Shown here piece by piece: positions 4,484-4,717 of a stretch of DNA of 5,921 bases. The notes beneath the pieces were generated by a model, which worked only from the letters and a program-made list of their open reading frames with translations, did not search any database and was not told the DNA's origin. The position numbers and the translations under genes are program-made. The DNA comes from Escherichia coli (GTDB lineage Bacteria > Pseudomonadota > Gammaproteobacteria > Enterobacterales > Enterobacteriaceae), in assembly GCF_003334815.1 (NCBI RefSeq), contig NZ_QOWO01000069.1. One strand, given 5' to 3'. The first letter of the stretch is position 1. Every line of letters starts with the position of its first letter.

Positions 4484-4717
4484 TTACTTAAGAATGCCGA
4501 AATCCCGGATGACATGGTTCATCCAGTACCCGGCACCGTCCTCAAAATTCCAGGTACGCCAGACCATTGCACCGTTATTACGGACAACCAGGCGAAAATG
4601 TTCTCCGTGGTCATCCTCGATAAAGACGTTCCGGTACTGTTCAGCAACAGCTTCGGCATGTTTGCGGGTAAAAGGACCATCAGGCAGCCCCTGAAGTATT
4701 CTGAAATATTCGCTCAT
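4484..4717 (-). CDS. Small DUF905/YkfF-like protein (77 aa from ATG at 4717; alternative starts ATG 4723 or GTG 4744)
   Basis: Compact ORF between ssb and the ParB-like gene. Sequence ([67 protein letters not shown]...) resembles the DUF905 family (E. coli YkfF) from memory. GGAGAG sits about 6 nt upstream of ATG 4717. The GTG at 4744 lies in the loop of an intergenic hairpin, so is unlikely to be the start. Confidence 0.6.

Follow-up and report, generated by a model that had tools for sequence, protein, structure and literature searches.

The stretch of Escherichia coli DNA analysed here (5,921 nucleotides of contig NZ_QOWO01000069.1, assembly GCF_003334815.1; hereafter the window) encodes a 77-amino acid protein of the DUF905 family, which is almost certainly the orthologue of YfjA of the F plasmid and shares its expression context, the leading-region operon behind the single-strand promoter Frpo2. 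The gene and its family, the structure of a homologue and the expression programme shown for the orthologue are already known; since everything but the function is on record, the finding is the correct identification of a known gene and not a discovery. The best explanation as a whole, to which we give even chances, is that this YfjA orthologue of the Frpo2 leading operon is an early establishment protein that binds a host factor; the putative host-factor-binding mechanism, taken by itself, is put forward tentatively. F-like resistance plasmids express the operon that contains this gene within minutes of their arrival in a new cell. Roles have been assigned to SSB, PsiB and, in a 2026 preprint, HerB, the ParB-like protein of the operon, and that of PsiA is less clear; a target of DUF905 would complete the picture of plasmid establishment and could explain the narrow host ranges of plasmids carrying psiB and DUF905.

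The open reading frame (ORF) lies on the minus strand and consists of 78 codons, from an ATG at position 4717 to a TAA at 4484-4486. Alternative starts are a GTG at 4744, which gives the mechanically called ORF of 86 amino acids, and a second ATG at 4723; the ATG at 4717 has a GGAG 8 nt upstream, and NCBI annotates the same start in F and other plasmids. Around 21 ORFs of at least 77 amino acids are present in the 5.9-kb window, mostly spurious antisense artefacts, and the length of the ORF alone is therefore no evidence of a gene. That the gene is real, and already catalogued, follows from matches to Pfam DUF905 (PF06006; UniProt UPF0401; E=4.1e-33, score 113.7, model positions 2-69 of 70), to PHROG 8779 (E=1.1e-31) and to PDB 2HJJ (YkfF; E=5.6e-21), the only solved member of the family, together with a median Nei-Gojobori ratio of nonsynonymous to synonymous substitution rates (dN/dS) of 0.19 (1019 pairs, 61 distinct homologous genes); for the pair formed with the F orthologue, dN/dS is 0.07. 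A megablast search with positions 4400-4800 matched at least 5000 plasmids, nearly all of them annotated with DUF905, and 3470 of 5426 complete E. coli genomes (64%) carry a copy, at 4523 plasmid and 668 chromosomal places. Chance ORFs of similar length are plentiful in the window, but a non-functional chance ORF or decaying remnant is refuted by the hidden Markov model (HMM) match (E=4e-33), the solved homologous structure, the dN/dS ratio, the presence in thousands of plasmids and most complete E. coli genomes and the detection of the F orthologue as a protein fusion. A preliminary description of this DNA, which did not state the strand, had noted a compact 77-amino acid ORF between ssb and the ParB-like gene and had assigned it to DUF905; the ORF was found as described, the Pfam HMM search agrees with the family, and the frame is indeed conserved in related plasmids.

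YfjA of the F plasmid (WP_000005990; NC_002483, positions 59239-59472) is identical to the window protein in 75 of 77 residues, the two substitutions being E26A and H40Q. Its gene occupies the same slot between ssb and yfjB/yubM, which encodes a ParB-like protein of 652 amino acids (655 in the window), and has the same ribosome binding site and both flanking hairpins. The surroundings, however, are only about 85-95% identical to F, so that the window comes from another IncF-like plasmid; as a whole, it shares 95-97% identity with several IncF-type plasmids from E. coli and E. albertii. In the F literature the pair is named yfjA/yfjB, and the label yubM is found on the ParB-like gene in some annotations; yubL is an alternative name of yfjA.

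On the minus strand, the operon reads Frpo2-ssb-DUF905-ParB-like-psiB-psiA, with hok/sok beyond psiA. The DUF905 gene is the second cistron; it is co-directional with its two flanking genes and located downstream of an Frpo-type repeat. The single-stranded DNA template strand of the Frpo2-like region folds stably (-72.6 kcal/mol, z=-3.1). From the repeat up to the ParB-like gene (positions 4300-5921), the search for a sigma-70 consensus promoter gave no match, and the frequency of terminator-like sites in the same interval was not above that of shuffled sequences. In F, the operon is silent in donors, is transcribed from folded single-stranded Frpo2 once the T-strand enters the recipient and is switched off around 30 min after conversion to double-stranded DNA; deletion of Frpo2 abolishes expression of the operon, with conjugation frequency unchanged (PMC9849209). 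A YfjA-sfGFP fusion was undetectable in donors and appeared in transconjugants only, in an Frpo2-dependent manner; it became visible before conversion of the single-stranded into double-stranded plasmid, peaked at around 5 min and stopped at 25-35 min (PMC9849209). RNA-seq during early conjugation revealed early enrichment of the transcript, in agreement with the timing of YfjA-sfGFP (PMC12672017). Transient zygotic expression is thus a literature result for the 97%-identical F orthologue, and the proposal that the gene belongs to the same early operon as its neighbours proved right (PMC9849209). In enterohaemorrhagic E. coli strain EDL933, ciprofloxacin increased transcript levels of leading-region genes on the resident plasmid pO157 (antirestriction gene 33-fold, ssb 7-fold, DUF905 5-fold; PMC11125564), which hints that the 'zygotic' genes are also inducible when DNA damage makes single-stranded plasmid DNA.

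The window protein is a single-domain alpha/beta protein of 9.2 kDa (pI 6.0, net charge about -2) with the alpha-beta-beta-beta-alpha fold of YkfF, and its length and location in an IncF-like leading region fit the stand-alone members of the family, which have 70-85 amino acids and are found on mobile elements of Enterobacterales. Every invariant position of the core motif FTR..A...Y.N..IEDDxG.HFRLV.R ... WR.WNFE ... N..I is present. Residues N30, E34, D35, D36, G38, F41 and R54 are invariant across plasmid and island contexts, and L11, F16, T17, R18, A21, I33, R42, L43, V44, R46, W53, W56, F58, N67 and G74 are at least 95% conserved. Position 37 is a histidine in the window protein, as it is in the F subgroup, and a glutamine in 55 of 61 family members. 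Strands 1 and 2 are connected by the acidic turn E-D-D; together with the subsequent H-F-R, this turn would seem to serve interaction and not to determine the fold. The family is narrow, since 1.84 billion proteins contain only 199 of its clusters at 50% identity, and no significant fold relative was found outside of it.

In contrast to the window protein, some DUF905 proteins have a second domain: orf55 of Cronobacter phage vB_CsaP_Ss1 (L075:856-1233), the product of L006:2118-2528 and the proteins P0180, P0240 and P0257. Their N-terminal 60 residues match DUF905 and PHROG 8779 and are followed by an uncharacterised C-terminal domain of about 70 amino acids, which ends in ...NVPLY..GEQLL.G.F. 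DUF905 was found as N-terminal domain in three phage proteins and several metagenomic proteins. The corresponding genes lie in syntenic runs of small early-type ORFs on podophage-like contigs, and one such run adjoins an N4 gp8-like gene; phage homologues are rare, however, with one among 50,697 phage records. Longer DUF905 'fusion' proteins provided no Rosetta-stone evidence. P0189 and P0212 were rejected as SSB-DUF905 fusions because the SSB sequence is out of frame, which marks them as frameshift artefacts of sequencing or assembly, and P0173 was rejected since the additional part is a DnaE fragment, probably derived from a chimeric assembly.

To survey the genomic context, one genome of each species was scanned with a peptide pattern; the 62 loci obtained were classed by tblastn with the neighbours of the window gene and of a Klebsiella chromosomal copy. 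Plasmid-type loci (26 plus two truncated ones) show the order [ssb]-DUF905-ParB-like-psiB-psiA, in which the ParB-like gene always follows DUF905 immediately; 13 of them have ssb directly before DUF905, and 10 with enough flanking sequence lack it. In about 25 divergent loci of Enterobacterales, the DUF905 operon is preceded by an Frpo-like element, and nine of the 10 ssb-less loci have an Frpo-like sequence directly upstream of DUF905. The second class, chromosomal islands of the CP4 type, accounts for 32 of the 62 loci and has the arrangement (YfjS_YafY-IrmA)-DUF905-DUF932-antirestriction-RadC-DUF987-CbeA(-CbtA), as anticipated in the preliminary description, which placed homologues beside toxin-antitoxin and anti-restriction genes. 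None of these 32 loci contains ssb, the ParB-like gene or psiB, and no Frpo was detectable in them. YkfF, whose structure was solved by nuclear magnetic resonance in a structural genomics project, belongs to this class; it is encoded in the cryptic prophage CP4-6 of E. coli K-12, in the context of the DUF932, antirestriction, RadC, DUF987 and CbeA-CbtA genes; ssb, ParB and psiB are missing there, and no Frpo is detectable. In the F plasmid, antirestriction and DUF932 genes are also found within a few kb of DUF905.

Every credible DUF905 locus of the genome scan is from Enterobacterales. The loci L013-L016, L018, L035, L041, L042 and L054 are labelled as Streptomyces morookaense, as metagenome-assembled genomes of Oscillibacter, Oscillospiraceae and Clostridiales, as Acinetobacter idrijaensis or as Chryseobacterium sp.; these contigs are short, carry IncF leading regions or CP4-type islands of enterobacterial type (at most 95% protein identity to the window), differ little from plasmid or island DNA of E. 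coli and most likely result from contamination or mis-binning. Distant HerB homologues were retrieved with a Rahnella homologue as query. This HerB-first retrieval revealed Hafnia and Salmonella plasmids with the canonical order ssb-DUF905-ParB-psiB-psiA, as well as plasmids of Yersinia ruckeri, Y. massiliensis and Serratia, in which an unrelated ORF of 93-97 amino acids (146 as annotated in L079) lies immediately 5' of the HerB-like gene (L076:2080-2361, L077:2081-2362, L079:1913-2353 and L080:2078-2368). Its product has the motif GRSTGTIE..P...SVW.V..WP.AASD and is misnamed 'Mab-21 family protein' or 'ribulokinase' in RefSeq. It has no Pfam match, hhalign against DUF905 returned a probability of 0.06%, and it may have taken the place of DUF905 without being homologous to it. 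The pairing of DUF905 and HerB is frequent, but obligate in neither direction.

Only seven papers in the searched literature (PMC open-access and bioRxiv) mention the DUF905 family, and none of them studies its function. According to the reading that we favour, the protein would be made early, from single-stranded Frpo2, as the element enters the recipient, and would act stoichiometrically and non-enzymatically by binding an Enterobacterales-specific host protein or nucleoprotein complex during establishment of the incoming element, independently of the operon neighbours. Given its small size and lack of features, DUF905 is probably not an enzyme. A putative host-factor binder is suggested by the small size, the conserved and probably exposed loop/strand motif (N30, I-E-D-D-x-G-x-H-F-R-L-V-x-R and W-R-x-W-N-F-E), the confinement to Enterobacterales, the islands without SSB, ParB and PsiB and the use as an N-terminal domain in podophages. 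Independence of the neighbours is argued for by the island-type loci, which make up 32 of 62 and lack SSB, ParB and PsiB, and by the finding that HerB acts without F. The Enterobacterales-only distribution, the 199 clusters and the joint enrichment of DUF905, psiB and psiA in plasmids of narrow host range (PMC12826799) point to an Enterobacterales-specific host interaction. DUF905 would thereby parallel PsiB, an SOS inhibitor that acts non-enzymatically by binding the host protein RecA; both are small, zygotically induced products of the same operon on narrow-host-range plasmids, but they have no sequence or fold relationship. A more specific version, which we regard as possible at best, is that DUF905 is a portable inhibitor of one Enterobacterales-specific host factor that poses a threat to DNA on arrival, for instance a nuclease, a recombination mediator or an immune sensor; the inhibitor would be used by conjugative plasmids via the single-strand promoter, by tRNA-linked islands and by podophages as a fused N-terminal domain, with the E-D-D/H-F-R loop as epitope.

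Anti-defence would be one possible form of host-factor binding, and a dedicated anti-defence protein that inhibits restriction or another immune system can be regarded as a special case of the favoured explanation, albeit a rather doubtful one. The leading-region location and zygotic expression are consistent with it, as are the ArdB/KlcA-type antirestriction gene one to two genes away in islands, the antirestriction and DUF932 genes that F carries at a distance of a few kb and the relatives in early small-ORF clusters of phages. However, DUF905 has no similarity to any described anti-defence family, its fold and charge give no hint of a DNA mimic, and a systematic study of anti-defence genes in leading regions (Nature 2024) does not mention it. 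Scans of the protein with NCBIfam and PADLOC, the latter a collection of defence rather than anti-defence models, gave no matches, and inhibition of a defence system by DUF905 was not reported in the literature searched. Of the interpretation offered in the preliminary description, the checkable parts (family, operon and islands) were correct, and the anti-defence or regulatory role stays conjecture.

The main rival to a host-factor binder is an accessory subunit or modulator of HerB/YfjB, for example a loader, chaperone or regulator of the CTP-dependent clamp, and the conserved stem-loop between the two cistrons would then set their ratio. In all 26 plasmid-type genome loci and seven further plasmid records, the ParB-like gene comes directly after DUF905 on the same strand at a distance of 58-76 nt, with a conserved hairpin in between; the pair is retained in the 10 ssb-less loci, the IncI plasmid operon begins with ykfF-parB-like, and the ORF of about 95 amino acids in the same slot of Yersinia and Serratia plasmids could be a functional analogue. 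Nevertheless, we consider this role unlikely: DUF905 occurs without a ParB-like gene in the 32 island-type loci, HerB-like genes occur without DUF905, and HerB alone forms nucleoid foci and reprograms transcription independently of the rest of F, as described in the 2026 preprint (PMC13370423).

The hairpin that follows DUF905 has no U-tract and is thus not an intrinsic terminator. A stable hairpin is present at this position in 33 of 33 plasmid-type loci, with at least four stem sequences (GCCGGACG, GCCCTGC-GGAG, GCCGGGCAGA and GCCGGATG), and its conservation despite these differences suggests selection on structure, with a function as mRNA stabiliser, processing site or attenuator being possible; covariation is argued from folds of the individual sequences only. 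A GC-rich stem-loop without U-tract is found in each of the gaps of the minus-strand RNA between ssb and DUF905, DUF905 and the ParB-like gene (4457-4479) and the ParB-like gene and psiB (2421-2441). The ssb and DUF905 genes share a reading frame, and positions 4745-4777 contain four in-frame stops within seven codons (UGA UCG GGC UGA UCG UGA UAA). The hairpin and Shine-Dalgarno sequence of this spacer are unchanged in F and in an E. albertii plasmid.

A joint action of DUF905 and SSB on the single strand that enters, through binding of either the acidic C-terminal tail of SSB or single-stranded DNA, is weakly disfavoured and appears quite improbable. A single-chain AlphaFold 2 model, in which the SSB tail was fused via a linker and for which 18 paired sequences were used, gave a predicted local distance difference test score of 34-39 for the peptide, and binding of the tail thus found no support within the limited sensitivity of this method.

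The features of the window are listed in Table 1.

Table 1. Features of the 5,921-nucleotide window and the evidence on which their assignment is based.
Feature	Coordinates	Strand	Evidence
DUF905 family coding sequence, 77 amino acids plus stop	4484..4717	minus	Orthologue of F plasmid yfjA/yubL
Spacer between ssb and DUF905	4718..4774	minus	Three in-frame stops beyond the ssb stop, GC hairpin 4736-4756, GGAGAG Shine-Dalgarno (sequence and fold)
9-bp GC-rich stem-loop, DUF905 stop to ParB-like start	4457..4479	minus	Minimum free energy -19.3 kcal/mol, z=-4.8 against shuffles
Plasmid-type ssb, first cistron	4775..5302	minus	NCBIfam PRK13732, E=9e-109; the alignment starts at residue 14 of the mechanically called ORF
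ParB-like gene, orthologue of F yfjB/yubM (HerB)	2456..4423	minus	85% identical to the 652-amino acid F protein; ParB N-terminal domain matches
psiB (SOS inhibitor)	1967..2404	minus	NCBIfam PRK13701, E=2e-83
psiA	1251..1970	minus	NCBIfam PRK13704, E=4e-125
Hok-family toxin gene	571-732	minus	NCBIfam PRK09738, E=8e-30
sok antisense RNA	730-901	minus	Rfam RF01794, 98 bits
Frpo2-like single-strand promoter region upstream of ssb	5600..5921	minus	94.9% identity with the region that precedes ssb in F
Frpo1-like repeat copy, promoter of the next operon (beyond the window, towards oriT)	1..286	minus	Matches F 63424-63736, upstream of ygeA

The window is framed by a direct repeat of about 290 nt (1-286 and 5631-5917), whose 257-nt core (30-286 and 5661-5917) is 97% identical between the copies. 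By blastn against F, the counterpart of the right copy is the region that precedes ssb, and that of the left copy is the region that precedes ygeA; these F counterparts are Frpo2 and Frpo1, respectively, of Couturier et al. 2023 (PMC9849209). Between psiA and the Frpo1 repeat, the hok and sok genes form a locus for post-segregational killing of the flm/hok-sok type. Downstream of psiA, an ORF of 115 amino acids (940-1287, minus strand) corresponds to a 104-amino acid 'hypothetical protein' of an E. albertii plasmid (L001, 10266-10580).
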